This document shows, one piece after another, positions 11,209 through 45,131 of a stretch of DNA of 64,000 nucleotides. The translations under genes were made by a program, and so were the position numbers. Source of the stretch: Naegleria gruberi (Eukaryota); assembly GCA_000004985.1 (NCBI GenBank), contig GG738911.1; one strand, 5' to 3'. The notes beneath the pieces are model-generated. The model was not told the DNA's origin and searched no databases. It saw nothing but the letters and a program-made list of their open reading frames with translations. How positions within the stretch are numbered: position 1 is the stretch's first letter; the number at the start of each line of letters is the position of its first letter.

Positions 11209-11287
11209 TTTTTTTAACAATTTTTAAATTAAATATTTTTTAAATACTTTAAATTTTTTTGTAATATTTATTTACAATTTTTAAATA

Positions 11288-22820: not shown

Positions 22821-24251
22821 TATATGAGCATTCATAGAGGAAGAGTAATTGGATCAATAATGATCAATAGTTCATAGCAAGATAGTATCATTGAACACGC
22901 ACACAGTGTTATTATTATAACACACCAGACTGAGTCTTAATAAACGTACCTTAATGTGAGCTTGAAATTACGACATTCCTTTACTCGAATTGGATAGGAC
23001 CTTTCCTGATATGATAAAAATTTTTATCTCTTGGACCTAGGCCTTAATAAGTACCCATAATCTATTCGCAGATTTTCTATTAACTGGGTCAGTTAGAATG
23101 CAACAATCATCAAGATGTATTTTTCTTCTCCTTAATAGGTAAATCAACGAGGAATCTTCTTCCTCAATCAGCAACCAAAATTATCAAAAACAAACAAGAC
23201 ACTCTTTTAACATTCAATCCAACAATCATTCCTCATAGTTTTCTAGTTTCTTTCTTATTATGAAGCGTATTAAACCGCATTAATATGTTAAATTCCAAAG
23301 CTCTAATAAGGTATTGCAAAGCTCCACTTGTTTACTTCCATACCAGTAAGGAATGAGCTAAATTGCAGACCTTAAACAACGAGCAATTGATCAACTCAAT
23401 GAGTGCGTGGGCGATACCATAAATCTTCTAAATAAGCAAAAGCTGTAAAGAACCGTAGCTTCTTTCTCTTAATTCAGAATCCTGTTGCTTTACATATCAG
23501 GCTTTGACAGATTGTGATGGTTGATACCTTACATTCAACACAAACAACAAGGCACAAACAATTCATATTGTTGTGTATTATTGGTAAACATAGTATGGGC
23601 CACAACACCTATCCAGGACAATTTGAAAAAAACACCCAAGACTAATAGATAAAAGCATCATCTTCATCATTGAGGAGGAGTAATTCATTTCCCTGCTGTG
23701 CGTCATATCAAAATTCATCAAAGAAGTTTGTGCTACTCAAGTGTGAAAAGCAGTTCTTGCCCAATTGAGACTCTATCATCAAATATCTACCCCAAAATTT
23801 AAAAAGCATTCTAGAGGTATCACTAGCCTTATTCATATAATTAATAGCTTCAATTGGTCCACCATTTAAGCGATATTGGCTTGTCTCATTCCTATATGAT
23901 TGTGTGCCTCTTCTCAATTACTACAACTTCAGATCACCATCAACATCATCATTCAATATAATTACAAGTCTTTACTGTAGTACAGTACACGCACACACAA
24001 GTTCTTGTTTCTATTCAAAATTTGCTTTCTCTTCCAAATCAACCCAACCTTACCAACAACAACAAGAGCAAAACTGTCTTGAGAGAAATTAATTGATAAT
24101 TCCCTTGCTGAAAAAAATATCCCCTCATCCTCCTCACTCTCCCAATCCAACGAAAAAAATTGTTGGGCGCCAAAATTTGAAAGCCTTTTCATTCATATTT
24201 GACCAACAAACGGCAAGTCTACAATTTCCATATTTATAATCAAATCCATAA

Positions 24252-27200
24252 ATGAACAGTCAGCAGATCCAAAAACCACAACCAATAAGGACCATCAACA
24301 ACAACAATAACACAAACAGCTCCACCAAAGGAGGGAGCTCTTTAAAATTTGTGGTTCCAAACAACCAGAACAACACTTCAACTATTGAGAACCAGTCCAC
24401 TAACAACATTTCTTCTGAAATACAGGGCTGCAGAAGTGGTGTGAATGGACATGGATGCAGAATGAACAATCCACCGTCCTCCCCTTCATCGTATGTTTCT
24501 TATGATACCAAAACACCATCATCATGTACGGTACATGTAACGTACTTGAATGCAACCTCTCCTTCATCACCCAATAACACAAATAACACATGTGTTGCAA
24601 CTACAACAACAATACAGAATACGAATGCTTCTAATGGCAGCACCGAATCATCATTTAAAAGATTCCCAATTTCTCAATCTCCCTCCGTTATTGATCCTGC
24701 AGTCACCATGCAAGATCACTATTTCCATACGACAATCAAGACTGAAAATGCACAATTTAAGAATAAGTGTCCTTCTGTTTCCCCTAATAATACTACACCT
24801 TCCACTACTCCAAATTCTTATTCTAATACCTTTCAAGATTCTTCTGTAAATCCCCCAAATGACAGCAAGCCAATAGCGACCAGTCAACTATCACATCCTT
24901 ACAATACCTCATACCATAATAATAGTAACCAATCCAGTCTTAACTCTCCATTTGAAACAACAACCCATGTTGAGTATCCGACCATGCAACATTTACCAAC
25001 CTTGTGTTCTATTAACCCTACACAAACAACACCAATATCAAGCAATTCCCAACAAGCACAAACAACACAGTCCTCTCATCTTCACGTTAATCATCAACAA
25101 CAAACACAACAAAAACAAATACCACCCAATAGTTATGCAGCACGCCTATTTTCCATGAATAACAATAATATTCATCATCATCATCAACATCATCACTCAA
25201 CAACAATTAATCCGAATAATATTATTAACAATAGTCAAAGTTCTCCGAATAGTAGTAGTGGTGGTGGTCAACTAATCACTTCAATGAATAATAATTCAAA
25301 TATAACCATGAATAGTCATCATCAACAACAACAACCACAAATAATGAAGAGTGATTTGGGAATGAATAATAACACATGTGGTAATTCATCGAATAATAAT
25401 AGTACGACTGCTTCCATGTCATCTTTACCCACTCCCCAACCCATTCCTATAATGAATAACAACAAGGGAACAACAACAATTAATCATCAACATGATAATT
25501 CCATGTTGCCAAGTCCTATAATGATGACAACCAGTTCCTTTCCTCAGTACAATTCCATGCCGATGAATGTAGTGGCAAATAATTCTACACACCAAATAAT
25601 CACAACAACTGTTAGTGCTACTACATGTGGAGAACGGCATGGTGATAACTCGCCCACAACATGTGGTCACCATGTACAATTATCATCATTATCCAATATT
25701 AATCCATCCAATTCCTCCTCTTCACTGTCATCGAGTATTTCCAGTGGCCATGTGAAAAGTAATACTACACCAAACAATATATTAGAATCCACCCCTTCCT
25801 CACATCAACAACAACAGCAGCAACATGATGGATACAGTAGCACCACAAGTAGCAGTAGCATGTCATTGAAAGCATGCTCTTCGTCGTCAATTCAACAACA
25901 AAATGATGACTTGTCAATTTCCAGCCAACAACCAGAAAGAAAAAAGAAGCGAGTCAACCCACCTCCACCAATAATGAATAGTACAACCGGTCACCATCTG
26001 CCTCCATTTATTCCCATTCAACCACATCCTTCTCTCACACCAACCCATAGAAATCCTCCATCTCCAAACATGCATTCACAGTACCAACAGTTTGCAAAGA
26101 TTGTTCCTTTTGGTGGCATGTCTCAAATGCCAAATGTCGTTGGTCAACCACAACCACCTCCACATGGCATGCCAGTTCCTTTCTATCATAGCTTCACACC
26201 ATTTCCAACACCGATCACACCAACAGGAATTCCTCCAAGAATGTCAAATAGTAATATCATGAATGCAACACCATCTCCAACAACTCCAGTTCCTCTTGCT
26301 TCCTCTCCACAAGGAGATGCAATTTCCTCATCGTCCAGTAATTCAGATGACAGTTCAAGTAATACTCCAACCAATAGCCAACAGCAAAGTGCATCAGCTT
26401 TTCCTACCTCTACTCCTTCTTCACACTACTCGTATGAGATTGTCATTCCAGGAGATTCATGCTCCACAATTATTAAATTGAATGTTGGGTTAACTCTTGA
26501 TAAATTTCATGATATCAGAATGAAAAAGACAATATTTGAAGCTTTCATTGAAAATCAGAAAACTGTCAATGATGGAAGGTCTGGAATTTCAAATGAAACT
26601 CAAAAGATTAGTACTTGGAGGTTGAAACAAGTAGAAATTATTAAGAATATTTGCTTTTTCAGATTTAAATTGTTGGATGATGGAAAACCAGAATCTCCCA
26701 CTGTTGAATTGGACAAAAATGGTTATGAAATTAATGGAAATGCTTTGGCAAAAGTTTGTGAAAGTGGTCCAAGTAGATTGGCTTTTTCACTCGATTCCTA
26801 TGGTAAAAGAGTTTCCAAGAGATTACACAAAGAAAAGCTCGTCACTTGTCCATTTTTGATCACGTTGACAAATGGTACAAAAGATTTTGTAAAGTGTGTT
26901 TGTGTCCATTTGTGTATTAATAAGAGACAAAAGAAAACAGTAATCACTAGAGCAGATTTTGACACGTTACTGCGAGATAAGAGTTATATGGTTTCTCTCA
27001 TTTCTATATACGCAAGTTCAACAAAGAAAAAACCACTTGACGAGGAGTCATTGTCTTCTGATGAGGATGAACAACCACTCAAAATATTAAAAAGGGATCC
27101 CTCTGGCAGTGCTCACACAGAGTTGAGACTTAAACATGGACCTGGCTATATGGTTTCAATTAATAATGTTACCTTGAGATATCCATTTGCAGGTGTTGAT

Positions 27201-27431
27201 CCAGGACCTGTGGATAATTGGAGAGTTAGTTTAAAAGGTTCAGAGGGTGAGATTGATTGTCAAGTTTTAAGTGTTTCTACAGTTGAGTCCGAGAGCAGTT
27301 CATCATTCTCTACTGTTTCCATTTTCTTTGAGCTACCAATAATATCTACTAAGGTGTCAGTTCTGGTAGTCAAGTATAAGAATATTGAACAATCTTCAAA
27401 TGCTGCATTTTACATGATTGACGATAAATAA
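24252..27431 (+). CDS. 1059-aa low-complexity (Asn/Gln/Ser/Thr/His/Pro-rich) protein with a C-terminal globular domain of about 330 aa; function unknown (possibly a nuclear regulator).
   Basis: One uninterrupted ORF. Homopolymeric runs (poly-N, poly-Q, HHHHQHHH). The C-terminal region (about 26430..27431) has ordinary composition and Cys/aromatic residues, suggesting a folded domain. Confidence 0.5.
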   Translation: MNSQQIQKPQPIRTINNNNNTNSSTKGGSSLKFVVPNNQNNTSTIENQSTNNISSEIQGCRSGVNGHGCRMNNPPSSPSSYVSYDTKTPSSCTVHVTYLNATSPSSPNNTNNTCVATTTTIQNTNASNGSTESSFKRFPISQSPSVIDPAVTMQDHYFHTTIKTENAQFKNKCPSVSPNNTTPSTTPNSYSNTFQDSSVNPPNDSKPIATSQLSHPYNTSYHNNSNQSSLNSPFETTTHVEYPTMQHLPTLCSINPTQTTPISSNSQQAQTTQSSHLHVNHQQQTQQKQIPPNSYAARLFSMNNNNIHHHHQHHHSTTINPNNIINNSQSSPNSSSGGGQLITSMNNNSNITMNSHHQQQQPQIMKSDLGMNNNTCGNSSNNNSTTASMSSLPTPQPIPIMNNNKGTTTINHQHDNSMLPSPIMMTTSSFPQYNSMPMNVVANNSTHQIITTTVSATTCGERHGDNSPTTCGHHVQLSSLSNINPSNSSSSLSSSISSGHVKSNTTPNNILESTPSSHQQQQQQHDGYSSTTSSSSMSLKACSSSSIQQQNDDLSISSQQPERKKKRVNPPPPIMNSTTGHHLPPFIPIQPHPSLTPTHRNPPSPNMHSQYQQFAKIVPFGGMSQMPNVVGQPQPPPHGMPVPFYHSFTPFPTPITPTGIPPRMSNSNIMNATPSPTTPVPLASSPQGDAISSSSSNSDDSSSNTPTNSQQQSASAFPTSTPSSHYSYEIVIPGDSCSTIIKLNVGLTLDKFHDIRMKKTIFEAFIENQKTVNDGRSGISNETQKISTWRLKQVEIIKNICFFRFKLLDDGKPESPTVELDKNGYEINGNALAKVCESGPSRLAFSLDSYGKRVSKRLHKEKLVTCPFLITLTNGTKDFVKCVCVHLCINKRQKKTVITRADFDTLLRDKSYMVSLISIYASSTKKKPLDEESLSSDEDEQPLKILKRDPSGSAHTELRLKHGPGYMVSINNVTLRYPFAGVDPGPVDNWRVSLKGSEGEIDCQVLSVSTVESESSSSFSTVSIFFELPIISTKVSVLVVKYKNIEQSSNAAFYMIDDK

Positions 27432-29232: not shown

Positions 29233-31053
29233 TTAAACTTCTTCATCTTCCAAGAGGGATGAGGAGGATGCATTGGAATGATTGTTAGAATTGAAGAGAA
29301 TCAAATCCTTGATGGCCTCCTCTTGAGAATTGTATGAATATTTGGTGGAATTATCATTTTCCAATAAGCCAACATGGAATGTGATTGCTTCCCTTACAGT
29401 TTCAATCTTCTTGAGTAGTGGTTTCATGTAGCCAATAAATACCTCCAACAGCACGGATGCAACCTCAGAATCTTGTGTTTCCAATGGTGGTACTGTTTCA
29501 CTATTTGATTTCTTCTTTTCCAATAAACCTCTACACTTGAGAATGGCATTGAGAAAGTAGGATGTCTTTTCATTCTTACAAACCTCCTTAGCAATATTAA
29601 CAAAGAGAATGTTGGTATTTTTCTCTTCTGAATCCTTCATGGCCATCTCAATCTTCTTGACCAAGCTCATCATGTAGTCGATTGTCCTGTTCAAGTGATA
29701 GAGAACCTTATCGTTGAATTCCTCTAATCTGGCTTTGTGATCGAGAGAATGCACGTGTGGAAGGACATCATCTAGTTTGTTATCGAAAATCATGAACCAA
29801 ATTCTGCCTTCTCTCATCGATTCGGTAATTAACATTTCATTGGTCTTGTGAATGTTCAAATACCAATCAGATTTGATTTTGTACATGTACCCATTTGATA
29901 AAACCATGACATATCCTTCATGACCCTTCTCATCCTCTATTGCTTTCTTAATTCCTTTCATATCTGTTTGTGAGATGATTTCTGGATTTTCACAAGATTT
30001 GACACATTCAATTCCATACCCTTTACAAGAACTTTTCATTTCTTCGTACGGAATGAATGATCCCAAAATTGTATGTCTCAAGGCGAGCAATGAAATGAAT
30101 GGCTTATTTCCGTAATTTACAACAACTCTGTGATCAGGTGAAAAATATTCGAATAGTGGTGTGTAACCTCTATTCATCCACTCGACACAAAATTTCACTA
30201 ATTGGGCGTATGATCCCTTATCTTTCAATTGATCCTCCAATGAATGCATTCCAAAATCAATTACAAACGGTATGTCTCTAGTTGATTCACATTCTCTTCC
30301 ATCCTTGACAGATTCAATTGCAAAGAGTGGAAGCTTGGATTCGTGTAATTTCTTTCTCTTCTCATGATATTCCCTGTTGATCTCATCTTGTTCTGAAACA
30401 TCACTCGATTGCCCCTTTACAAGATTCAATTTTTCCAATTCATATACAAATTCCTCAATGGATTGAGAGTGATCATTCTGATAGTCCAACTTGGTTCTAA
30501 ACCTCAATCTGAAATGTTTCTTCTCTCCAGAATCATCCTTCAAAAATTCAATGATAGGAGTGCACAAACTACCATCCAATTTTTCCAATAATGTGAAAGG
30601 TCTCTCCTTTCCAGTTTTCTTTTTCAATTCACTGATCAATTTTTCAATAATTTTAAAATTGGTTTCTTCCTTTTCATCCACATTGAAGAATTTTGGCATG
30701 GAACGACCAACAATTCTCCTACTTTCTCTATCAAAGCACAGTCCACGAATTTCTCTTCTCAACAACCTTCTTTCAATTTCCTCATAGGAATCCAAATTAA
30801 TATTCAACTGTTTTGTATTCTCATCAATGAGATGAGGAATGAAGGGGAAACTATCACTTGACACCACTTTATAACTCACAAATGTAAAGTCATTATTCGA
30901 TTGAATGACAAATCCCCTTGTTGTTCCGATATTTTCAATCACTTGATCCAAGGTTTCTATTCTTGGATAGATGAGTGGTTCACTGGCAGAAAAAGGAGCC
31001 TCTCTCTTCATATCAGTGTTGGTGTGGGTAATTGCAGTATTAAATGCTGACAT
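29233..31053 (-). CDS. ATP-dependent RNA ligase (Rnl)-like nucleotidyltransferase (606 aa).
   Basis: Covalent nucleotidyltransferase motifs in the correct order: motif I 'LEKLDGSLC' (KxDG adenylation lysine), motif IV 'HEGYVMV', motif V 'MYKIKSDWY' (K-x-K). No P-loop kinase or 2H phosphoesterase modules seen downstream. Confidence 0.6.
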   Translation of the reverse strand: MSAFNTAITHTNTDMKREAPFSASEPLIYPRIETLDQVIENIGTTRGFVIQSNNDFTFVSYKVVSSDSFPFIPHLIDENTKQLNINLDSYEEIERRLLRREIRGLCFDRESRRIVGRSMPKFFNVDEKEETNFKIIEKLISELKKKTGKERPFTLLEKLDGSLCTPIIEFLKDDSGEKKHFRLRFRTKLDYQNDHSQSIEEFVYELEKLNLVKGQSSDVSEQDEINREYHEKRKKLHESKLPLFAIESVKDGRECESTRDIPFVIDFGMHSLEDQLKDKGSYAQLVKFCVEWMNRGYTPLFEYFSPDHRVVVNYGNKPFISLLALRHTILGSFIPYEEMKSSCKGYGIECVKSCENPEIISQTDMKGIKKAIEDEKGHEGYVMVLSNGYMYKIKSDWYLNIHKTNEMLITESMREGRIWFMIFDNKLDDVLPHVHSLDHKARLEEFNDKVLYHLNRTIDYMMSLVKKIEMAMKDSEEKNTNILFVNIAKEVCKNEKTSYFLNAILKCRGLLEKKKSNSETVPPLETQDSEVASVLLEVFIGYMKPLLKKIETVREAITFHVGLLENDNSTKYSYNSQEEAIKDLILFNSNNHSNASSSSLLEDEEV

Positions 31054-31106
31054 TTTTTTTAAAGTTCACTCTTGAATTTGCACTGACTACTGTAATTTTA
31101 TTTCAT

Positions 31107-33107
31107 CTAAAATTGCGTATTGTAATCTTCTGGATAATCATGTCCTGGTGGAATGTTTTTGCTATCATCGTCCTGGGATTTAAAGAGGAGAGTGTGGCTC
31201 TTTACATTACTTGCAATTGCTTTACATTCTTGATAGAAGAAAATGGAATGGAGCATGTGAAAATGAAAATAGAGATCTACCTCTTTGGTTGGCATTACTC
31301 GTCGATTTTCTTGGAGGAATTGAATGTAAGTACTCTTTTGGCCGATATCTGCCTGTGAAAGCTGGAATATATGCTCATCAAGGAATAATTCCAAATACTT
31401 GACTTGCTCTTTCACATCTTTGACTTGAGCCATTTCTTCTGAAAGACTATTATAGAAGAAGAGCTTGGGATTAAATGGATGGTGTGTTGGCAAGGCAATA
31501 CCATTTCCTTCTGAAGATAGTAAATGTAAATAGTCAATTTCAAGATCTTTTGGAAATTCACATGAGCTGAAATTGGCATGTTGATTCAAATTATTTCTAT
31601 TTTCAAGTATTTTTGTAAAATTCAAAGGAATTAAATCAGAGGGGCAATTACTGTAGTAATCATCCAATAGAATAAAGTGAAGTCCAATTAAAACATCATC
31701 TGGTGCAAAATCAAAACACTTGTGCTTTGATTCATTCAAGAAATGTTTCGCCTTTTCCATCATCTTTTCAAAATACCACACCTGATCTGGATCTTGGGAT
31801 AATATTAATAGTGAGTCATTCAATTTTTTTGTAATATCCTTTAAAAATTGAAGATAAAGAGGCAATCCTTTTTCAAAATTAATGGAAGAGCTCAGGAATG
31901 GTGAATAAATTATTGATTTAAAGAATGAACCCTCACTCTTCTCAAAAGGAATGCTGTTTGTTACATTTGCATAGGATGTCGTTTTTGAAATTGTTATAAT
32001 CTTTTTTCGTTTCTGTTCAATAAAACTCAACACTGTTTCGTTTTCTATCAACATTGCTGGATCAAGAATGAATAAAGTTTCTCCCGTTTTCTTGAAAGAT
32101 GATGCAGCTTGATACATTTCATACTTGTAATATTCAAGAAAAATCATTCCACTCAACAGATAAAATTCAATACACGATTCAGTTTGATGTATCATCATTA
32201 AATATTTCACATCTTTCGAATCTAAAATGATATTATTCTTTTTGAAAAAGTGAATCATTCTTCCTCCAAATATTTGACTGCCACCTTCTTGGTTGTAAAT
32301 AATTAGTTCATGAAATTGAGGAGAAACTGAGGCAACAACATTAATCAACTCGACACTATCTATAAATTCAAATATACTACACAACACATTCTCAACCTCA
32401 CATAAAATTTGAAATGGATTCGTCTTCTTTTTCGATTTGAAAAACGAAAAGAAATTAAATAATTTCGTTCGTTTTTTCCATGGCCTCATACTTCTGCGCC
32501 TTCCCTTCACGTTATTTACCAACATGGAAGGCAAACTAGTAGAAATAAATCGTTCCAAACAAGCCAATTTAAGTGCCTCATTATTATTTCCATATCCATA
32601 ACTTCCAACACCAACAATCATTCCATCAAAATTAAAAGCCACCTTTCCACAATTAAAATCCACAACTATTGATCGTCTACACAACTCCAAATTATCAATC
32701 ATTGCATTGCCATCCTCATCATAACTATAATTCACAAATTGATTAAGTGGATCAAATCTCAAGTCATCATCAGAATCTGATACTTTACATCGATTCGGAA
32801 CAAACCAACCATTAATTTCCTCCTCACCAATCCAAACAATAAACATTCTCCTAATTTTCAATGCATATTTCCCTTTCAATAGCAAATGATTGGAGAGAGA
32901 AATTCTCTCCGATCTGTAACCATAGTGATAGACAGTCAATTCATTATTAATTTGCTCGATGGATGATTTTTGAGAATTAATTTGATGAATATTGTTATCA
33001 TCATTGGTCAATCCAAGGATAATGGCAAGGACCTCGATTATGCTCTCCCTGGAAATTGTATTGAGTGCTGTGGATCCGTAATCAAAGCTTCCACCACGAC
33101 AAGGCAT
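31107..33107 (-). CDS. F-box-like protein (666 aa) with an N-terminal domain of unknown function.
   Basis: Internal F-box-like segment 'FQILCEVENVLCSIFEFIDSVELINVVASVSPQFHELI'. Otherwise unrecognised. Divergently paired with the DUF4116 gene at 33287. Confidence 0.5.
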   Translation of the reverse strand: MPCRGGSFDYGSTALNTISRESIIEVLAIILGLTNDDNNIHQINSQKSSIEQINNELTVYHYGYRSERISLSNHLLLKGKYALKIRRMFIVWIGEEEINGWFVPNRCKVSDSDDDLRFDPLNQFVNYSYDEDGNAMIDNLELCRRSIVVDFNCGKVAFNFDGMIVGVGSYGYGNNNEALKLACLERFISTSLPSMLVNNVKGRRRSMRPWKKRTKLFNFFSFFKSKKKTNPFQILCEVENVLCSIFEFIDSVELINVVASVSPQFHELIIYNQEGGSQIFGGRMIHFFKKNNIILDSKDVKYLMMIHQTESCIEFYLLSGMIFLEYYKYEMYQAASSFKKTGETLFILDPAMLIENETVLSFIEQKRKKIITISKTTSYANVTNSIPFEKSEGSFFKSIIYSPFLSSSINFEKGLPLYLQFLKDITKKLNDSLLILSQDPDQVWYFEKMMEKAKHFLNESKHKCFDFAPDDVLIGLHFILLDDYYSNCPSDLIPLNFTKILENRNNLNQHANFSSCEFPKDLEIDYLHLLSSEGNGIALPTHHPFNPKLFFYNSLSEEMAQVKDVKEQVKYLELFLDEHIFQLSQADIGQKSTYIQFLQENRRVMPTKEVDLYFHFHMLHSIFFYQECKAIASNVKSHTLLFKSQDDDSKNIPPGHDYPEDYNTQF

Positions 33108-33286: not shown

Positions 33287-34489
33287 ATGCAAACACTTCT
33301 CTTAGATCAATCATTTCAATCCAATTTACTCTCCACTAAAATCAGAGACATTCCTCACCATTTAAAATACCAAACAATCATAGCTCCGATCGTCTCCGGA
33401 GGTTCCGAACATTTAAAGGAAACCATTAAATTTCTCGATACAAGACGAGATTGGTTTACAATTCTCAAATTTATGAATGAACACAATTCGGGTCATAATC
33501 CATTCAGCAATGTTTCCATCAGTTCATTGGGATTTAAATATTCACTAAGTAGCCGCCATGAATTATTTGAAATTTACATCAATTTGGGAAAGGAATTGAA
33601 ATTTGATTCAAATTTTATATTTCAAATAGTTGGAATTAGTCCTGGATTTATTTATAATAATTCTAATGAAGTTATTAGAAATGATAGAGAAGTTGTGTTG
33701 AGATCTGTTAAGGGAGTTGGTTCTATGCTTAGTATTGCTTCTGATAGATTGAAAGATGACAGAGAAATAGTTATGGCAGCTGTCAAGCAAGATGGTGGAA
33801 GTTTAAGATATGCAAATGATAGATTTAAGAGTGATAGAGAACTTGTCCTGTCAGCAGTCAAATCAAGTGGTCATGCTCTTCAATCCGTTCATGAATCATT
33901 AAGGAATGATAGGGAAATTGTAGAGTTGGCAATTTCACATTGTTGGTCATTTCTAGGGAGTGCAGGCGAGGAAATGAAAAACGACAGAGAAATTGTAATG
34001 AAGGCCGTAATGAGAAATGAACAAGGAAGTGCCTTTCAATATGCTAGCAGAGAATTGAAACTAGATAAGAAGTTTGTTTTGGAGGTTGTCAGAAAAAGTA
34101 AGGGATTTGCACTTGAATATGCTCTTGAAGAATTAATTAAGGATAGGGAATTTCTTGTTGAAATATTGGAAATTCCTGAAAGATCTTCCACGGCTATATA
34201 TTCTATAGCGAGATTTATTAAGGATGATAGAGATTTGATATTACTAACTGCTAAATATGATGGATTTATAATCAAATATATTAATGAGGAGTTTAAGAAG
34301 GATAAGGAGATTGTATTTGAAGCTGTCAGTCAAAATATCAATGTTTTTCAACATATTGACAAGTCATTAAGGGATGACAAGGAATTTGTGTTGAGATTGG
34401 CAAGGAAAAATTCAAAGATTATTCAATTTTTGACCAAATCAATGAAGAAAGATCATGAATTTATGTCTCAAATCAATAAATTGAAATAG
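33287..34489 (+). CDS. DUF4116-like repeat protein (400 aa).
   Basis: At least eight tandem 36-38-aa repeats of the type 'NDREVVLRSVKGVGSMLSIASDRLKDDREIVMAAVKQDGGSLRYANDRFKSDRELVLSAVKSSGHALQSVHESLRNDREIVELAIS…'. Confidence 0.65.
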   Translation: MQTLLLDQSFQSNLLSTKIRDIPHHLKYQTIIAPIVSGGSEHLKETIKFLDTRRDWFTILKFMNEHNSGHNPFSNVSISSLGFKYSLSSRHELFEIYINLGKELKFDSNFIFQIVGISPGFIYNNSNEVIRNDREVVLRSVKGVGSMLSIASDRLKDDREIVMAAVKQDGGSLRYANDRFKSDRELVLSAVKSSGHALQSVHESLRNDREIVELAISHCWSFLGSAGEEMKNDREIVMKAVMRNEQGSAFQYASRELKLDKKFVLEVVRKSKGFALEYALEELIKDREFLVEILEIPERSSTAIYSIARFIKDDRDLILLTAKYDGFIIKYINEEFKKDKEIVFEAVSQNINVFQHIDKSLRDDKEFVLRLARKNSKIIQFLTKSMKKDHEFMSQINKLK

Positions 34490-34759: not shown

Positions 34760-35806
34760 TTAAATATTTGCTGAAATACTACCATGATTGATTTCTTCAA
34801 AGGTGATACCTTCATTCTTCAAATATTCCAAAACGGCTGGCTTAATCTTTGGTCCCTTTTCATCAGAGTGATTACCTGCACCATAAATAATGGTCAACTT
34901 TGGTTGTTTTTCACCTCTCAATTTTTCAATTCTCTTCTTCAAAAAGTCCATAGCATTGTCAACATATTGACCATGCAAATCAATTTCCAAATCACCCTTA
35001 TCCTTATTCAAATGTTCAAACATTGTGTTGGCAGATTCTTGTTGATACTTCTTCATCAATTCTTGATGTTGTTTTCCTTCTTCAGACAATTGCTTAGAGA
35101 GACCACCATCACCACTTTCGTAGGCCTTCTTGGCTCTTTCGAAACAATCGGACATCAATTTAGATTCTTCGGAAATCTTCTTTTCCAATTCCTTGAACAT
35201 TTTCATAGCATCGGTATCATGTTCAACAAATTGATTTTCCTTGGCATCGAATTCCCAACCGTACTTCTTCAATTCGGCCATAATACGATCATAACAGGCC
35301 TTTGGATTGGCTGATTGTTCAATGGTAATATGCTTGGAATCATCATCAGAGTCTTTAACATTAATTCTTGATGAAGTTTCCTCTTGTAATTGCTTGATGG
35401 TTGAACCCTTTGGACCAATAATAAACTTGGCAATAACAGCAGGCTTGAGAACGAATGAATTAGTAGCTTCATCAAAGTTAGAGGCAGCAACAGATGGAGT
35501 AGTGGTAGTAGCCTTTGGTGGTTCGGCCACAGCCTTCTTCTCCTCAACTACAACATCAGTAGTCTTGATTGGTTCGGCTGGTTTGGTTACTTCTGGCTTT
35601 TTAGTTGGTTCTTCAACAATGGCAGGTTGTTCGGAAGCCTTAGTTGTAGTAGTGGCAGCAGCAGTTGTTGATGTACTTGTGGAAGTAGTGGCAGCAGTTG
35701 TTGTTGCTGGTTCCTTCTTGGTTTCTTCCAATCTCTTGTTATTATTCTTCGACTTGTTGTTGGTGGAGGATGAAGATTCCTTTTGTCCTGAAAAACAATT
35801 GCCCAT
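34760..35806 (-). CDS. KH-domain + Smr-domain protein with an N-terminal myristoylation/palmitoylation motif (N4BP2-like C-terminal module).
   Basis: N-terminus 'MGNCFSG' (Gly2 plus Cys). KH 'KFIIGPKGSTIKQLQEETSSRINV'. C-terminal Smr 'LEIDLHGQYVDNAMDFLKKRIEKL…LTIIYGAGNHSDEKGPKIKPAVLEYL'. Thr/Ala-rich linker. Confidence 0.65.
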   Translation of the reverse strand: MGNCFSGQKESSSSTNNKSKNNNKRLEETKKEPATTTAATTSTSTSTTAAATTTTKASEQPAIVEEPTKKPEVTKPAEPIKTTDVVVEEKKAVAEPPKATTTTPSVAASNFDEATNSFVLKPAVIAKFIIGPKGSTIKQLQEETSSRINVKDSDDDSKHITIEQSANPKACYDRIMAELKKYGWEFDAKENQFVEHDTDAMKMFKELEKKISEESKLMSDCFERAKKAYESGDGGLSKQLSEEGKQHQELMKKYQQESANTMFEHLNKDKGDLEIDLHGQYVDNAMDFLKKRIEKLRGEKQPKLTIIYGAGNHSDEKGPKIKPAVLEYLKNEGITFEEINHGSISANI

Positions 35807-36832: not shown

Positions 36833-39800
36833 ATGGCGCCAACAGCATCTGTGATTGGTGGAAGCAGTGCCATCATGTCTGAGTCAAATTCAACCTCGGA
36901 TAGTGGAAATAACTCAGATATGTCCAATACAATAGTACAACTGAAAAATAGGATTAGAGATGAGAGTTTTCACTTTTTATTTTCAATGCAGAGAAATGAA
37001 CGAATTAAGGGTAACAAGACATTCTCTTTCCTTTTGATATTTTATATTATATTCTTTTGGAGTTATATTTGGGCACCAGTGTTGAGCCCAACAGATTTTA
37101 ATTTTGGATTGTGGGGATCATGGATATTGACTGTGATTAATTATCCAACAACATATTCGCTGGATTTGATACCCTATGTTGGAGTGATAGTTTTGTCAGC
37201 ATTTAGTATGCTCTTAATAGTATCTTATTTTGTTATTTTTATAGTTAGTATTAGGGCTGTTAAGACCTCATCACAGTACGTGAAAAAGATTAAGAAATTC
37301 CTTAATTACTCATCGATGGCCATGCTATTGTTGGCCATTCCGATGGCTTTCATACTAACGAGTTTTGTGGATTGCGACCATGGCTATGGGCGGTCAAACT
37401 TACTAAGAGAAACAATCACGCTCTCTACTAATACTAACTCTCACTATGAAAACTTTCTATATCAGAATGGTGTAAAGAGTTCCAATTCTTCTATCAATCT
37501 AAATTCCTCACCTTCATCAACATTAACACTCAATAGATTTCCAGCTGAATCCATTGTGTGTTACACTCTTGGAAATACCATACTTGTAGCAGTGACACTT
37601 ACTTTCTATTTGATTTTAATATTCTTGACCGTCCTTTCTTCCACACTGATACCGAACTCTCATCCACTTAGCTATGCTCCAATGATTGTTGACAATCCTA
37701 TCTTTCTTCCATTATTTTTCGTTCTTCATTTGTTTGGTATTTTGATTCACTTTCTCATTCCACCTCATTTTTCCTTTATTAGATCAATAGTGCATGTGCT
37801 ATTTTCATTGGTGGGAATATGGTTTGTAAAGAGTAAGGTACCAATGATGAGGCGATTCGAGAATTCCATTGTTTCAGCTGTAGCCTTTGGTAAATTGGGA
37901 TCTTCTATTGGAGGAATTGTTTGTTCTTTAGCCAATAATTTACACGGTAATGAGTTAGGTGTTGGTCTTACTGGAATGACTATTGTACTAGTTTTAGTAT
38001 TTGCCTTGATTGGATATGTTACAATGGAGATTTATACGAGATATGTTATCAAGACGATAAAATCAAGATATTTAACTTTATTGGGAGAGGGTAGCTTGGA
38101 GAGAGAAGCTGGTGGCATTTTCCAACAATTGGAAGAACAAGAGAATGTTGAATTATTGGATTTGTATGGAAAGTTTGTAATGATGAGTAATGCTAAATCA
38201 TTCAGACTTTACAGAAAGGAAATTGTAACCAGTACAGATTTACAAGAGCTCATTGGATTTATCAGAGGCATTTCAACACAAAAAACTGTACAACATGTGA
38301 ATTTGTTGCTGACATCAGCAAGTTTGGTTGCTTATTTCATTCCAGACGAATCAAACTCGACTGTTTTTGCCAATGCCCTAATCAAGAGAGCCGTAAAGCA
38401 ACATCCAAGTACCTATTTCAAATACAAGATTGGCCAGAAAGCAAAGGAAGTTGAAGTTTATGCTTCGGAACAACTTCGAGGTGCAAAGAATATGATTGAA
38501 CTTAAATCAATTTTGAGAAATATTGAAAAACAAACTACAGAGCTTACCTCTCTTCATAGACACTACTTTAAAGAACTAATGCAAGGTATGTTATTGGTAT
38601 ATTTAATAATTACTAAATTACTTCTTAAAGAAATGATAAATTACAAAAAGGTAGAACAAATTCTTCATAGAGCAGCCGTTTTAACAGGGAGCTTGGATAG
38701 TATCTTTGATAATATTTTAAGATTATATTATAATGACAAAACTGTTTTAAGAACATATGCTTCATATATGGAGTCTTTTAAATTCAATAGAGAAATAGCT
38801 CAAGAATATTATGGTGAAGCAATGATGCTGGAAGATGAAGAGTCTCAGGCAGTTAGAAAGCCACCAACCTATATCACAGCTTTGAAAAAGAGATCTAATA
38901 CTGTAACTTCATTATCAGAATCAATTGTTGATACTGATAATTCGAGAAGAAAGATGTTAAACTCGGTAGCTTTCAATAACATTGTAAACGAGCTCAGCGA
39001 ACCATCTGTGGCTAGTATTGAAAACTTTGAGGGTATAGAAAATCAAAACGAAGCTAAAAGAGAGCTGGTTTACAGAACAGCATTAGAAAGTCACGGTTCT
39101 AGAGCCATGCCATTGATATTTTTCAGTGTGTTTATCCTTTTTTCGCTTGCTTTGATAGCTGTCGGTTTGGGTGTTGGTTATTCTTTCAGTTTAGCTGTCA
39201 CTGAAAATGTGGTAAATGTTATTGATGCATGTTCTCCAATAGCTTCCCTTACCAATCTTATTATTACCTTGAGAGGATTCCAGGCAACTCAAAATTTGTT
39301 GGATATGGGTGTTACTTTGCAACCAACATTAACCAATAGAATTTATTCTGATATGACAAATACCAAATCTACTGTTAAAACTTTGGCTCAACTCTTGACA
39401 AATTTACAACAAAAAGCATATGACGCCAAGTTAACAGAATTGGTTTATTCTAGATATCATGAATATTATTATACTATTCTAATACCTTTGGCTTCAAATA
39501 GGTCAAGTATCTCAGAAAAGTTTTATTTCGCTACTACAGAACAGAATGTTACCATAACAGATATTAACAATGTTCTGCTCAAAATTACTACTCAATTATT
39601 GACAGCATCGAAAGAGGATTTGATGAAAACAGTGTCCAGTTATGAGTACATGTATCTCTACAGAAATCAAGAAAAAATCACAAGAGCTTATTCTGATTTT
39701 TGTAAAATATTCATGATTTCAGCCAAAGATGATGCAGTAACAATTAACACAATATTTACATATTACATTTCCTTTTCATTGAGTGTATATATAGTCTTTG

Positions 39801-42116
39801 GATTTATTTTCTTAATAATTCAATATAGATATTTATCTGGTGTTAAGAAACAAATCAAACTAATGCAAGAAAATGTATCCAAGAATGAAATTGGTAAATT
39901 ATTCCATGATTTGGGAAAGAAAGTAAGCGATGATACTCATTTGAGGGCTTCCAGGAATGCTTTATTGACACCAAAAAACTTGTTTTCTTTGTTTGGATTT
40001 TTAACCATTGTAATTGTTTCAATTTGTTGTGGTATTTACTTGAGTGAAACTTTAGGAAATTCTACATACAGTTTTGAATCATACGTTACCATGGAAGATG
40101 GTTTTGATGCCATGTCATACTTACAGCATACCACATTTGCAATTTCAGAGGTATTTATTCATGCTGTGAATGCAAAGTTCAATGTCAGTGAGAGCAGTTA
40201 TGCTCTTCTTGGGAATAGTGATATTGAACTAATGGCCACTGGATTTACAACTACTGTGAAATCATTGAGATACTATTGGAATTTATGTATGTATGGATCG
40301 GCTGTAAAGGCCTATGAAACCCTTGTTGTGGGAATGTTTACTGAAACAGATGACATGATAAGAGGAGAGGTTAATTGTGATATCGAGGCTTCTTTAAAGA
40401 CTTTTGAAAAAATCAAATCCTCTGGAAATTCTACAACTTATTGTAAAATGGGTGTTGACTACATGGTACAAGATATTATTCTAAAATGTTCTAATTTGAA
40501 AGAGGATATCAAGACCTTACCGCAACTGAGCAATTTCAAATCTACTAGCTTGAATTTTTTCAATGAGTTTTATAGTATTGCCTATCTTACCAATGCAGTG
40601 TCTATGAAATTGATAGATTTCTCAAATGTTTTTGCTGTTAAATCCGCCACTCCAAGAACAGAACAAATGATTTCTTTAGCGATTATTGCCTTGATTTTGA
40701 GTTCCACCTTTTTCGGTATAATGTACTATTCTATTGATACCTATTGGAAAGATTCTCATATTGCAAGATCATTATTTAACTATCTTTCAATTGATACATT
40801 GGAATCCAATGAAATAATTAAGAATTACGTTCTCTATCACACCACAAATGATGGTATTAAGAGAAAGAAGAAGAGCACTGAAGAATCCAAAGTGAATGCC
40901 ATTTTGAATGCTGCAGTTGATGGAGTTGTTGTTTGTGATGCTCAATTCTGGGTAAAGAGTTTCAACCCAGCTGCTTCCAGAATGTTTGGAGCTCAACAAG
41001 AAGAGTTTGTGAATAAGCCAATCTATTGTTTGATGACTCCTTGGTTCCATGACGATGTTCGTAAATTCCTGAATGCTTCCAAGAACAATACTAGTCTCAA
41101 TGACGCCAAATCAGCATCATTTGAAGTGGATTGTGTCAGAACAAATCTTTCAACATTCTCAGCAAGAATTAACCTTTTCATTACCGTTTTTGATAAGAAA
41201 CCAATTGTTACATGTTTCATTAAGGATATTACTTCAGAGAAGAAGCACAACTCACTTCTTCAAGAAGAAAGAAAGCACTCTGAAGATCTCTTGCTTAACA
41301 TTTTACCAAGTGCTGTTGCCACAAAATTGAAAGGAGGAGCCAGCTTGATTGCTGAGAAATTCCCAGATGTAACATGTTTCTTCTCTGATATGGTTGGATT
41401 TACGGCATTATCTTCTAAAATGGGTCCTAATGACCTAGTTCAAATGTTGAATACTATTGTTATTGGATTTGATGATTTAATGGATGTTTATCACCTTGAA
41501 AAGATTAAAACTATTGGTGATGCCTATTTCTGTGCAGGGTATGTTGTTTATATTAATTAATATATACTAATAATTATTCAGAGGTCTTCATGATTTGAAT
41601 GCCCAATCTGATCACCCTGAGAGAACTTTGAGATTTGCTATTGATACATTTGGAGTTATTAGAAATTATAACTTGAAATTTAGAAGAAACAATTTGAAGG
41701 AACAAATTAACATTAGAATTGGTATTAATACTGGGCCAGTTGTTGCTGGTGTCATTGGACGTAAGAAGTTTGCCTACGATTTGTGGGGTGACTCTATTAA
41801 TACAGCCTCTAGAATGGAATCAAATTCCAAGCCAGGAAGAATTCAAGTTTCCAGATCTACTTATGAAAGAGTTTTTGATTTAGGACTTGTTTTTGAGGAA
41901 AGAAAAATTGAAGTGAAAGGAAAGGGAATGTGTCAAACCTATTTGTTGGATGCTAAGCACCATACATCTGCTATAATTACAGAAGAGGATGTAAAAAACT
42001 CTGCTGATAAAGAAACCAAATCTGAGATTGCTGCACACACCGCTCCAATTGATAATCACGAATTGGAGATTGAGTTAGTACCAAAAACACCAAAAGGTGA
42101 AGTTGAAAATCAATAA
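36833..42116 (+). CDS. Polytopic membrane PAS-domain class III nucleotidyl cyclase (adenylyl-cyclase-type specificity residues), 1746 aa, two exons: join(36833..41538, 41582..42116).
   Basis: Cyclase catalytic core 'FPDVTCFFSDMVGFTALSS…KIKTIGDAYFCAG|GLHD…RIGINTGPVVAGVIGRKKFAYDLWGDSINTASRMES', split by a 43-nt intron (41539..41581, GTATGT…TACTAAT…CAG, phase 2). Upstream PAS-like 'ILNAAVDGVVVCDAQFWVKSFNPAASRMFGAQQEEFVNKPIYCLMTP'. Many hydrophobic helices in the N-terminal 1300 aa. The Lys (KIKTIGD) and Asp (YDLWG) at substrate-specifying positions predict ATP. Confidence 0.75.
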
Positions 42117-42293
42117 ATTATTAGGATTTTATTTCTATTAGAATTAAAATACTAACCAATTGAAGAACAACCACTCTCATCATCGAATTTAACATTTACA
42201 ATTTCAAAATTGATTAATGATTTTTATTAAATTGTGTCACCTCAAATTGCTTTAGTCTTTTTATGTCCTCTGCATCAAAATGAAATGCTTCGT

Positions 42294-43766
42294 CTACTTT
42301 TCTCTTCTNNNNNNNNNNNNNNNNNNNNNNNNNNNNNNNNNNNNNNNNNNNNNNNNNNNNNNNNNNNNNNNNNNNNNNNNNNNNNNNNNNNNNNNNNNNN
42401 NNNNNNNNNNNNNNNNNNNNNNNNNNNNNNNNNNNNNNNNNNNNNNNNNNNNNNNNNNNNNNNNNNNNNNNNNNNNNNNNNNNNNNNNNNNNNNNNNNNN
42501 NNNNNNNNNNNNNNNNNNNNNNNNNNNNNNNNNNNNNNNNNNNNNNNNNNNNNNNNNNNNNNNNNNNNNNNNNNNNNNNNNNNNNNNNNNNNNNNNNNNN
42601 NNNNNNNNNNNNNNNNNNNNNNNNNNNNNNNNNNNNNNNNNNNNNNNNNNNNNNNNNNNNNNNNNNNNNNNNNNNNNNNNNNNNNNNNNNNNNNNNNNNN
42701 NNNNNNNNNNNNNNNNNNNNNNNNNNNNNNNNNNNNNNNNNNNNNNNNNNNNNNNNNNNNNNNNNNNNNNNNNNNNNNATTGATAGAGGGATTCTTTGGT
42801 AATGTTCACATTTGTTTGAGGCGAATTGGATTGATTAGGAATATTATTAACATGTGATGTAAAATCTCCCAAAGGAACTTGTTTTTGTTGGAATAATTGT
42901 TGTGGATTATTTTGAGGGGATTGGTTGTAAACCATTTGATTCTGGTTCACCTTAAAGTTATCCATGTTCATTTGTTGAGATGGTTTTTGTGGAGAGAATG
43001 TTCCTTGATTGAAGAATTGAGTGTCTGGAGAATGTGAATGTTGCATCGAACCATTGGGTATGTTCTTGTCCATTGTTGCAGATTGGTAATTGGTATTATT
43101 TTGGCCATTACCGTTGGTGCTATTGTTAAGCATCATGTTCATGTTATTTCCATTAGATGGAACTTTTTGATTCATTTGATTCATCACTTGTGTTTGATTC
43201 ATTCTTGTCGGAGATGCCATCATTTGATTAAAGTTCTGTTGTTGTGGTTGCTTTTGGAGGAATGTATTATTTGGATTGTTATTACTGGTGTTTGCATTAG
43301 ATCCTCCTCCATTATTTAAAGAGGTAGTAGGTAAGGTATTATGGAAATCAAAGGATTGATATTGTTGTTGCGGAGTTAACTCATCATTATATGATTGGAA
43401 GAGTCTATCATTTTCTAAATTAACCTTATTCGAGACCGAGGCATGGATCATTTGTTGTTGATGAATGTTATTCATCATGTTTTGGGAAGCCTTTTGGTAG
43501 TGGTTTTGAGGAGAGTGGAGATTATTCATTACGTTGTTAGAATTACTCGTATAGTTGTTGGTGTTATTCATGTTCGATAAATGGAGATTGTTATTAATAT
43601 TGTTATTTGTATTATTATTGTTTTGGAGGTGATGATGATAGGAGGATGAAGAACCTTGTTGATGTTGTTGTTGAGACGTGTTATTGTTCGAGGAGGAGCT
43701 ACTAAGGGATAATTGAGGTGGTAGTTTTAAGAGTGGATTATGATGACCTTGTTCCATCGAAGACAT
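42294..43766 (-). CDS. Gln/Asn-rich low-complexity protein, interrupted by the assembly gap (42309..42778).
   Basis: ORF with an ATG at 43766. Poly-N/Q/H composition. 470 N's fall inside the reading frame, so length and frame across the gap are unknowable. Confidence 0.35.
   Translation of the reverse strand: MSSMEQGHHNPLLKLPPQLSLSSSSSNNNTSQQQHQQGSSSSYHHHLQNNNNTNNNINNNLHLSNMNNTNNYTSNSNNVMNNLHSPQNHYQKASQNMMNNIHQQQMIHASVSNKVNLENDRLFQSYNDELTPQQQYQSFDFHNTLPTTSLNNGGGSNANTSNNNPNNTFLQKQPQQQNFNQMMASPTRMNQTQVMNQMNQKVPSNGNNMNMMLNNSTNGNGQNNTNYQSATMDKNIPNGSMQHSHSPDTQFFNQGTFSPQKPSQQMNMDNFKVNQNQMVYNQSPQNNPQQLFQQKQVPLGDFTSHVNNIPNQSNSPQTNVNITKESLYQXXXXXXXXXXXXXXXXXXXXXXXXXXXXXXXXXXXXXXXXXXXXXXXXXXXXXXXXXXXXXXXXXXXXXXXXXXXXXXXXXXXXXXXXXXXXXXXXXXXXXXXXXXXXXXXXXXXXXXXXXXXXXXXXXXXXXXXXXXXXXXXXXXXXXXXXXXXXXRREK
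42309..42778. other. Assembly gap (470 N).
   Basis: A run of n characters in the sequence. Confidence 1.
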
Positions 43767-45131
43767 TTTATTTGAAAAAGGAGAGAAACTTGCAATTTCC
43801 TTGTGAGAGTTTATTATCTTTTAAAAGAGGCTGTTGGACCTCTGGCGAGTTTTAATGTGTTTTGGGGGATTTAAGCAAACTCTGAATAGAAATTTTTGGT
43901 CCTAAACATTGTATAAGGAACTCTCTTAGTGAAGATACTTTTTTAGCCAGGTACGTGCCTATAATAGACAGTTTCTTCACCCAAAAGGAGGCTTAAGTAC
44001 ATTGTTTACCGCTTGTATTCGGCGAAAACAAAGGAACGATTTTGCTCACATTGATAAAAACAAACTCCTTGCCTTATTGATCAACATTTCAGCAAATAAA
44101 TTTAAGAAGGTTCTATTAAGTATTTAAAGAAGGTTCTTTATTTCAATATCAATATTTTCATTCATGAGCATTTAACAACCTTCCTCCGTTCTTCTCCAAT
44201 GATTATGAGGAGAAATAAATGCATCATATCTCTATTTACAACAACGACCTTTTAGGATGACCTTAATTAGCAAGCTTAATAACAAACTAATGCAAAAAGT
44301 TCATCAATAGGTCGCCGTTGATCATAGTCTAAGCGTAAACTAACTCATATCATGTGTGTTAATCAGTTTTTGATTACATGAAGGCTCAGGAAAGTGAAAC
44401 ATAAACGTGGCCTTAATTGGAAGCTGTACAATTGATAGATTATAAAGCACGTCATTTCTCCTTTGTTAATATCACCAAATGCATTCTCACAATATTCAAT
44501 TTGAAAAACAACTCAATCTTCCGCTTCTCATCACCACCAACATATTATCAAGTAACCTTACACTTATCATATTGAGACAACTCTACCTTGATGAATTAAC
44601 AATTATTCAAAGATTCGGCAGACAAGGATACCAAATGGGGAAAGTCATGCGAATTTGCCGAACCTGAAAAAAGCGCGCTGGTCCAACACGTTGTGGTTTT
44701 TGTTTGGTGCTAAGAGGGTGGGGCCACACAGAAGGACAGAGATGCCGCACTCTTTTCACTCATTTGGCATTGTGTGTACATAAAACAATTAAATTATTTA
44801 CAACAATGTGCTTCTCAGCTGCTGGTAGTAGTACAGTGCTCGCCTTTGTTTAGATGCAGAATTTTCCTTTGAGAAAAAAATCACCACAACAAGACAAGGA
44901 AAAGCACCACTCTCTTTCCTTAGAATAATTTTGATTAACTAACCAAATAGTAGTAACAATTCTCGGTTATATTGAACAAGATAACAACAACATCATCAAT
45001 AGCACACTTTGTAAAATAGGCTCTTGATCTCTAATATTCTCCATCATTCTCTCTATTAATAGCTTTAGTAATATTACTTCTCAAGGAGGAGAGAAAGAAA
45101 TCAAAATCGAGTATATATACATTGAAAAAAC

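Follow-up and report, generated by a model that had tools for sequence, protein, structure and literature searches.

The 64,000-nucleotide (nt) stretch of Naegleria gruberi DNA analyzed here, referred to as the window, carries on its minus strand a complete, single-exon open reading frame (ORF) of 606 amino acids (aa) at 29233..31053, with the stop codon at 29233-29235. Judging by its conserved sequence, we read this gene, at a probability of roughly 80%, as encoding a catalytically active, stand-alone, ATP-dependent RNA ligase of the T4 Rnl1 family, one of several such paralogs in Heterolobosea. The ORF protein is 100% identical to a 592-aa N. gruberi “predicted protein” encoded on a 261-kb scaffold (EFC38139.1 / XP_002670883.1 / NAEGRDRAFT_81726 / UniProt D2VYM3), which places it in a heterolobosean (Discoba) and not in an amoebozoan, as a first-pass annotation of this DNA had implied. 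The same annotation had read the sequences KLDGS, EGYVMV, and YKIKSDWY, in this order, as nucleotidyltransferase motifs I, IV, and V of a 606-aa protein, and we find order, positions, and assignment to be correct.

The GenBank model of the gene has 592 aa and starts at Met15 of the ORF (nt 31009-31011), and a 607-aa gene call is also present in the ligase’s 90% cluster. Because the gene calls differ and aa 2-12 are disordered in the AlphaFold2 model, we consider both Met1 and Met15 as candidate starts. The first ATG is separated by 53 nt (31054-31106) from the stop codon of an upstream 666-aa ORF on the same strand (31107-33107, no Pfam match); either the ligase promoter is extremely compact or the Met15 start is used instead. 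A fusion of the ligase to this upstream ORF was considered and rejected, as the frames differ and the orthologs are stand-alone proteins with matching N termini.

Domain layout and active-site residues

The protein opens with an Rnl1-type N-terminal subdomain (aa 28-130, 30664..30972, minus strand, as are all features of the gene), delimited by alignments and modeled with a predicted local distance difference test (pLDDT) score mostly above 85. It is followed by the first half of the nucleotidyltransferase core (aa 131-204, 30442..30663), within which lie motif I (K158-L-D160-G161-S; aa 158-162, nt 30568-30582), whose K158 is the predicted AMP-accepting lysine, and motif Ia with K188, equivalent to Lys119 of T4 Rnl1. 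The second half of the core (aa 286-409, 29827..30198) holds motif III (PLFE302YF; nt 30142-30159), motif IV (E379-G380-YVMV; aa 379-384, nt 29902-29919), and motif V (Y-K392-I-K394-SDWY398; aa 391-398, nt 29860-29883). The core is succeeded by an all-helical C-terminal domain (aa 410-590, 29284..29826), seen as helices in the AlphaFold2 model and delimited by hhalign and TIGR02308 alignments, and by an acidic, low-complexity, disordered tail (aa 591-606, 29236..29283) that is not conserved and has a pLDDT below 50 over aa 592-606.

Alignment of the ligase with a T-even RnlA, which has the same length as T4 Rnl1 at an offset of one residue, allows the active site to be mapped residue by residue. 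In the N-terminal subdomain, R103, K121, and F122/F123 supply to the ATP site the equivalents of T4 Rnl1 Arg54, Lys75, and Phe76/77, as expected of the Rnl1 type; PMC6379707 confirms what Arg54, Lys75, and Phe76 do. Within the core, Lys99, Asp101, and Gly102 of T4 Rnl1 correspond to K158, D160, and G161, Lys119 to K188, Glu159 to E302, Glu227 and Gly228 to E379 and G380, and Lys240, Lys242, and Tyr246 to K392, K394, and Y398, and in the C-terminal domain Asp272/273 correspond to the invariant pair D428/D429. For the essential T4 Rnl1 residues beyond Arg54, Lys75, and Phe76, the list is reportedly that of Wang et al. 2003. The mapped active-site residues are invariant in the alignment of 119 homologs apart from K188, which at least 90% of its rows retain and which is invariant in smaller alignments, and they are also kept in the heterolobosean paralogs.

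No end-healing module is attached to this ligase. A motif scan of the protein detects a single KxDG and no Walker A motif or P-loop, and PF09511 is the sole Pfam domain, in agreement with the first-pass annotation, which had reported neither a fused polynucleotide kinase P-loop nor a 2H cyclic phosphodiesterase module. Two H-x-[ST] matches are present in the protein, of which the one examined, HES at aa 237, is not conserved among orthologs, and the conserved 2H HxT/S pair is thus absent. A hidden kinase or cyclic phosphodiesterase module was rejected for the same reasons: there is no P-loop, and the HES is nonconserved and helical.

Placement in the T4 Rnl1 family

Pfam PF09511 (RNA_lig_T4_1) matches the ligase with an E value of 6e-27 and 95.4 bits (gathering cut-off, 28.3) in two stretches split by an insertion, the first of which (aa 101-208) covers profile positions 1 to 95; such a match lies well outside what chance would give. 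NCBIfam TIGR02308 (T4 RnlA) matches with an E value of 2.8e-23 and 82.6 bits, and a phmmer search against the PDB recovers three T4 RNA ligase 1 sequences at E~2e-12. At the profile level, hhalign aligns the eukaryote profile to T4-like Rnl1 continuously over residues 53 to 352 of 374, with 99.7% probability (E=3e-26). The AlphaFold2 model, generated from the 119-sequence alignment (mean pLDDT, 87.1; predicted template modeling score, 0.75), points in the same direction: its structural comparison score is 23.4 against T4 Rnl1 (268 aligned residues, 25% identity), 17.3 to 18.0 against the ligase domain of Trl1 (Trl1-LIG, Rnl6), 13 to 14 against Rnl3, 10.6 against NgrRnl (Rnl5), 9.3 to 9.8 against Rnl2 and REL1, 8.1 or less against DNA ligases, and 6.1 against capping enzyme. 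Foldseek ranks the matches in the same order (T4 Rnl1, E=2.6e-15; Trl1-LIG, E=1.6e-7), so that T4 Rnl1 is the closest solved structure.

RNA ligases are sorted into families according to the domains that accompany the nucleotidyltransferase core (PMC6379707). Motifs I (KxDG), III, IV, and V are collinear on the nucleotidyltransferase fold of the ligase, as in the covalent lysine nucleotidyltransferase superfamily at large. The protein has neither the PF09414-type nucleotidyltransferase domain nor the closest structural similarity to Rnl2 or kinetoplastid REL1 that mark the Rnl2 family, and it differs from Rnl5 enzymes (NgrRnl/DraRnl), which combine an N-terminal appended domain with the lack of a C-terminal domain. 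A placement among DNA ligases or mRNA-capping enzymes, which the first-pass annotation had named as an outcome that would refute its call, is not found by the profile and structure comparisons: the C-terminal OB domain of those enzymes is missing, and the best matches lie with T4 Rnl1. The annotation’s call of an ATP-dependent Rnl-type RNA ligase thus holds and can be narrowed to a T4 Rnl1-like one by Pfam, PDB, and structure matches alike.

Compared with the founding member of the family, T4 Rnl1 (RnlA, gp63; PDB 2C5U, 5TT6, 9DO4), the Naegleria ligase shares the adenylyltransferase domain including its N-terminal subdomain, the set of active-site residues, a KxDG motif I, and, probably, a helical C-terminal domain, whose alignment runs to residue ~352 of 374. 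Both are stand-alone, and T4 Rnl1 needs a separate healing enzyme. The two proteins are ~23 to 25% identical and differ in length (606 versus 374 aa): unlike T4 Rnl1, the Naegleria protein carries a structured insertion of ~80 aa and a C-terminal domain longer by ~60 aa, fails to match PF20819, stays below the TIGR02308 equivalog cut-off, and is encoded by a eukaryotic nuclear gene within a paralog family.

A lineage-specific insertion in the catalytic domain

The ~80-aa insertion (aa 205-285, 30199..30441) interrupts the PF09511 domain between motif Ia (K188) and motif III (E302) and is recognized from alignments and from the AlphaFold2 model, with no Pfam match of its own. It consists of a variable acidic linker followed by a conserved helix, REYHEKRKKLHESKLPLF (aa 219-240; consensus, YHEkRKklHEskLPiF), which also contains the nonconserved HES, and by two short strands, a block modeled confidently at pLDDT 81 to 97. 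We observe the insertion in the Naegleria and Willaertia orthologs as well as in a second paralog lineage (EFC38820.1, P0149 in our set, and Willaertia P0146), which makes it older than a gene duplication in the common ancestor of Naegleria and Willaertia. Acrasis has a shorter version and the paralog EFC42678.1 a much shorter one, while T4 Rnl1, the bacterial and phage homologs, and Balamuthia have none. As a segment of an otherwise known gene, the insertion looks to be the only apparently undescribed one.

The C-terminal domain and the limits of the T4 comparison

Several points weigh against our main reading of this protein. Its TIGR02308 score of 82.6 bits remains far from the equivalog cut-off of 242.25 bits, with genuine T-even RnlA scoring 547.7; by the NCBI criterion, the ligase is on its sequence a distinct subfamily and not a functional equivalent of T4 RnlA. 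Pfam PF20819 (T4_Rnl1_C) gives no match at E<=1 in the ligase or in any of the 14 eukaryote-clade members, and the C-terminal domain taken alone matches the T4-like C-terminal domain weakly (P=0.0099), so that tRNA specificity is not transferable with confidence. T4 Rnl1 deprived of its C-terminal domain loses tRNA specificity but stays catalytically active. The insertion, lying inside the catalytic domain, may affect activity or specificity. Pfam scans of 28 ORFs detect no polynucleotide kinase, phosphatase, or 2H phosphoesterase in the 64-kb window that could act as a partner. Finally, N. gruberi has 13 ATP-dependent RNA ligases in addition to two RtcB ligases (Unciuleac & Shuman 2015, PMC4408790), among which labor may be divided, and a full-text search with the four identifiers of the ligase returned the list in that paper as the only publication.

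The failure of PF20819 on the eukaryote clade is why we trace the homology of the C-terminal domain through intermediates. With ~180 aa, this domain is larger than the ~120 aa of T4 Rnl1 and has an extra loop at about aa 505 to 530, and a phmmer search with the domain alone against the PDB gives nothing significant. TIGR02308 alignments nevertheless end at profile positions 357 to 368 of 373 in N. lovaniensis, the Willaertia orthologs, and closer relatives. A re-aligned profile of the eukaryote C-terminal domains matches that of bacterial and phage proteins of ~400 aa over 119 columns (hhalign, P=2.6e-12), the bacterial/phage profile in turn matches the T4-like C-terminal domain (P=6e-5), and bacterial members, such as those of a Legionella metagenome-assembled genome (MAG) and of Hyphomicrobium, match PF20819 above threshold. 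On these sequence comparisons, we conclude that the domain is probably a divergent, enlarged Rnl1-type C-terminal domain linked to T4 through bacterial and phage intermediates, although the direct PF20819 match fails.

This C-terminal domain also bears on whether the protein might be a Trl1-type (Rnl6) ligase of tRNA splicing or the unfolded protein response whose healing domains have been split off, joining exon ends with 3'-OH,2'-PO4 and 5'-PO4 as the separate sealing enzyme of Branchiostoma does. Trl1-LIG is the second-best structural match, but T4 Rnl1 is clearly the better one in both sequence and structure. Fungal and plant Trl1 (PDB 6N0T, 9QW7, 8RBJ) has a KxNG motif I, a Trl1-specific C-terminal domain binding the 2'-PO4, and fused GTP-dependent polynucleotide kinase and 2H cyclic phosphodiesterase domains, all of which are absent from the Naegleria ligase; its motif I is KLDG, and its C-terminal domain ties to those of bacterial and phage Rnl1-type proteins and not to the one that defines Rnl6. 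Since N. gruberi also has its two RtcB ligases available for tRNA splicing, we consider a Trl1-type role quite improbable.

Heterolobosean paralogs and the origin of the family

When 1.84 billion representatives were searched exhaustively with phmmer, 2892 clusters matched at E<=1e-3 but only 26 at E<=1e-30. The named close relatives in this representative search are all heterolobosean: N. lovaniensis, N. fowleri, Willaertia magna with three proteins, and Acrasis kona with three, which carry the annotation “T4 RNA ligase.” Also found are the N. gruberi paralogs EFC38820.1 and EFC42678.1, both of which are in the PMC4408790 list. A second profile search in a set of 5.8 billion proteins adds no named eukaryotes. 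Judged from these sequence matches, the ligase is one member of a family of stand-alone Rnl1 paralogs in Heterolobosea (Naegleria, Willaertia, Acrasis), which share its architecture and catalytic residues at 37 to 44% identity. The gene model of EFC38820.1 is without the N-terminal subdomain bearing the R54/K75 equivalents, possibly as the result of a truncated annotation. More distant copies are carried by Balamuthia (Amoebozoa). One metagenomic relative adjoins RhoGEF and leucine-rich repeat (LRR) genes and is on account of these neighbors taken as eukaryotic, and a MMETSP transcript (P0162) encodes a 1297-aa multidomain protein with an Rnl1-like domain at residues 292 to 647.

In a neighbor-joining (NJ) tree based on Kimura distances, the ligase and its orthologs are sister to the EFC38820/P0146 lineage, with the Acrasis group and then EFC42678 farther out. 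A 12-sequence eukaryote clade including Balamuthia was recovered in 46 of 50 NJ bootstraps in the first sample. In the larger-sample NJ tree, Balamuthia no longer grouped with this clade, and we therefore do not claim a single eukaryotic origin.

Outside eukaryotes, close known counterparts also include ~400-aa ligases of a bacterial and phage “T4 RnlA family” (e.g., Legionella MAG L008, Hyphomicrobium L012, and phage DSS3_MAL1), which are colinear with the Naegleria protein throughout, including the C-terminal domain, at 26 to 38% identity, the upper values being those of the best segments. They are without the insertion, and several match PF20819 directly, unlike the Naegleria ligase. They often adjoin a P-loop kinase, of the zeta-toxin-like type in phage DSS3_MAL1 and of the AAA_33 type in a phage-like contig and in the Legionella MAG, whereas the Naegleria window has none. 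In Legionella sp. MAG L008 (2121-4934), a cytidine/dCMP deaminase, an ORF of 132 aa of unknown function, an Rnl1 with T4_Rnl1_C, and an AAA_33 kinase form a cluster that looks like a heal-and-seal cassette, here in an amoeba-associated genus. A different arrangement is seen in Aquimarina sediminis (L020, 2119-4266), where a 715-aa protein combines an N-terminal AbiEii toxin-type nucleotidyltransferase domain with an Rnl1-type ligase domain.

Bacteria and phages account for the overwhelming majority of the family (1385 phage records and 24 bacterial loci, including the Legionella MAG), its eukaryotic distribution is patchy, and giant viruses of protists encode related ligases, all of which could suggest that the gene is an assembly contaminant or was recently acquired from a bacterial, phage, or giant-virus source, and has no integrated cellular role. 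The first-pass annotation had likewise left room for a viral or horizontal origin, which as a recent event finds no support. The ligase lies on the 261-kb N. gruberi scaffold among DUF4116, KH-Smr, PAS-cyclase, F-box/LRR, Wntless-like, and CNNM genes, with a GC content matching its surroundings, and its orthologs and multiple paralogs in N. lovaniensis, N. fowleri, Willaertia, and Acrasis group together in NJ trees. Identity to the best relatives from bacteria, phages, and viruses is just 20 to 38%, reaching ~38% only in the best-matching segments, which rules out contamination or recent transfer as far as we can judge and leaves this explanation very improbable. A recent giant-virus origin is rejected specifically, since the best BFVD matches are phage ligases and giant-virus matches are at most 17% identical. 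The data agree with an ancient uptake from the large reservoir of bacterial and phage genes and later duplication inside Heterolobosea, and any transfer must be older than the diversification of this group.

Predicted reaction and candidate substrates

In the reaction that the conserved active site predicts, Lys158 of motif I would attack ATP to form a ligase-AMP intermediate, assisted by R103 and K121 at the ATP gamma-phosphate, F122/F123 at the adenine, E302 and E379 at the metal, and K392 and K394 of motif V. AMP would then be moved to the 5'-PO4 of the RNA to give AppRNA, and in a third step the 3'-OH of the RNA would attack AppRNA and seal the break. The enzyme would thus act on 3'-OH/5'-PO4 RNA breaks that have been healed separately: since the ligase is without end-healing modules, a separately encoded kinase and phosphatase would have to act first where a break leaves 2',3'-cyclic-PO4 and 5'-OH ends. 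The small P-loop kinases adjoining the phage and bacterial relatives suggest that this type of ligase normally works with separate healing enzymes.

With regard to substrates, the Rnl1 C-terminal domain gives T4 its specificity for broken tRNA anticodon loops (PMC6379707), and because the C-terminal domain of the Naegleria ligase is probably homologous to it, the likeliest substrates would be structured RNAs, tRNAs among them, that are broken in a loop. By analogy with T4, we tentatively favor a role in the repair of tRNAs or stem-loops over one in canonical tRNA splicing, at somewhat less than even odds; the divergence of the C-terminal domain and the presence of the insertion make the substrate assignment the weakest step of our reading. 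A rather unlikely variant is that the insertion-bearing, long-C-domain form of Naegleria and Willaertia constitutes a functionally distinct Rnl1 subfamily that its structured insertion and enlarged helical C-terminal domain have redirected from tRNA anticodon loops, the candidate targets being particular mRNAs or rRNAs that have been broken or else a partner protein, for instance a healing enzyme encoded separately.

The large structured insertion in the catalytic domain, the divergent C-terminal domain, the TIGR02308 score far under the equivalog threshold, and the second, noncatalytic role of T4 Rnl1 in tail-fiber attachment given in phage annotations could also fit a ligase-derived protein with lost or altered catalysis, in which the insertion and the enlarged C-terminal domain serve a new function as a scaffold, in RNA binding, or in adenylyltransfer to a non-RNA substrate, but this is highly implausible given that all 15 checked catalytic and nucleotide-binding positions are kept in the examined orthologs and paralogs, which is unexpected in a pseudoenzyme.

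Genomic neighborhood

The window is ordinary eukaryotic nuclear DNA, with a GC content of 26 to 38% per 2 kb (mostly 30 to 38%) that the ligase gene resembles. It encodes F-box/LRR, alpha/beta-hydrolase, Hep_59, pseudouridine synthase, RING, epimerase, DUF4116, KH-DUF1771-Smr, PAS-cyclase, Wntless-like, CNNM, fucosyltransferase, eEF1A-like GTPase, and trypsin proteins. There is no second copy of the ligase in the window, where tblastn with the ligase protein matched only itself. At a distance of 3.7 kb from the ligase, a 348-aa ORF (34760-35806, minus strand) combines KH, DUF1771, and Smr domains in an architecture like that of the RNA endonucleases N4BP2/Cue2; in a eukaryotic genome this proximity is probably coincidental. 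An RluA-type pseudouridine synthase is encoded at 9814-11220 (minus strand; PF00849, E=3.7e-22).

Two proteins encoded on the plus strand, at 33287-34489 and 53259-55115, are almost wholly filled by DUF4116 repeats, with 7 and 9 stretches, respectively (E=4.5e-76 and 5.5e-84). A large PAS-domain adenylate/guanylate cyclase is split over the plus-strand ORFs 36833-41560 and 41595-42116: cyclase profile positions 3 to 65 are found at the end of the former and positions 71 to 182 in the latter, and the split is probably caused by a very short intron or a frameshift near 41560-41595. The eEF1A/HBS1-like GTPase ORF at 58397-59443 (minus strand) is without an upstream exon, as indicated by a G-domain match that begins at profile position 84. 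Two ORFs without Pfam matches fall in regions of unusual composition: a 1059-aa ORF of S/T/N/Q/P/H low complexity (24252-27431, plus strand) overlaps the strongest GC skew in the window (-0.375, 24001-26000), and a 490-aa ORF at 42294-43766 (minus strand), itself overlapped by plus-strand ORFs, lies where GC falls to 0.259 with a GC skew of +0.28 (42001-44000).

Relation to published work and biological meaning

The assignment of EFC38139.1 to the Rnl1 family and Naegleria’s wealth of stand-alone RNA ligases are already published: PMC4408790 lists seven Rnl1-family members (EFC42678.1, EFC38327.1, EFC38820.1, EFC38271.1, EFC38139.1, EFC37058.1, and EFC41136.1), and a Pfam annotation of EFC38139.1 is already carried by public databases. 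The premise of the first-pass annotation that free-standing Rnl-type ligases are uncommon in eukaryotic nuclear genomes accordingly fails for N. gruberi. The discovery value is limited, the exact protein and its family being known, and what is new here is descriptive, namely, the map of residues, the structured insertion, a C-terminal domain that is both divergent and enlarged, and the heterolobosean paralog family.

The 13 classic and two RtcB ligases of Naegleria (PMC4408790) are the richest RNA ligase repertoire known from any eukaryote, and only NgrRnl (Rnl5) among them has been characterized; this enzyme shares with the present ligase the organism, the superfamily, and the three-step chemistry predicted above. 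Should the insertion-bearing form prove to be a distinct subfamily, the heterolobosean Rnl1 radiation would represent a diversified eukaryotic RNA repair that might counter, for example, ribotoxins of viruses or of bacteria taken as prey. By its sequence, the ligase is a well-defined and probably active candidate for asking what the job of a phage-type Rnl1 is in a eukaryotic cell, and it also bears on how an insertion in the catalytic domain and an enlarged C-terminal domain may retune substrate specificity.

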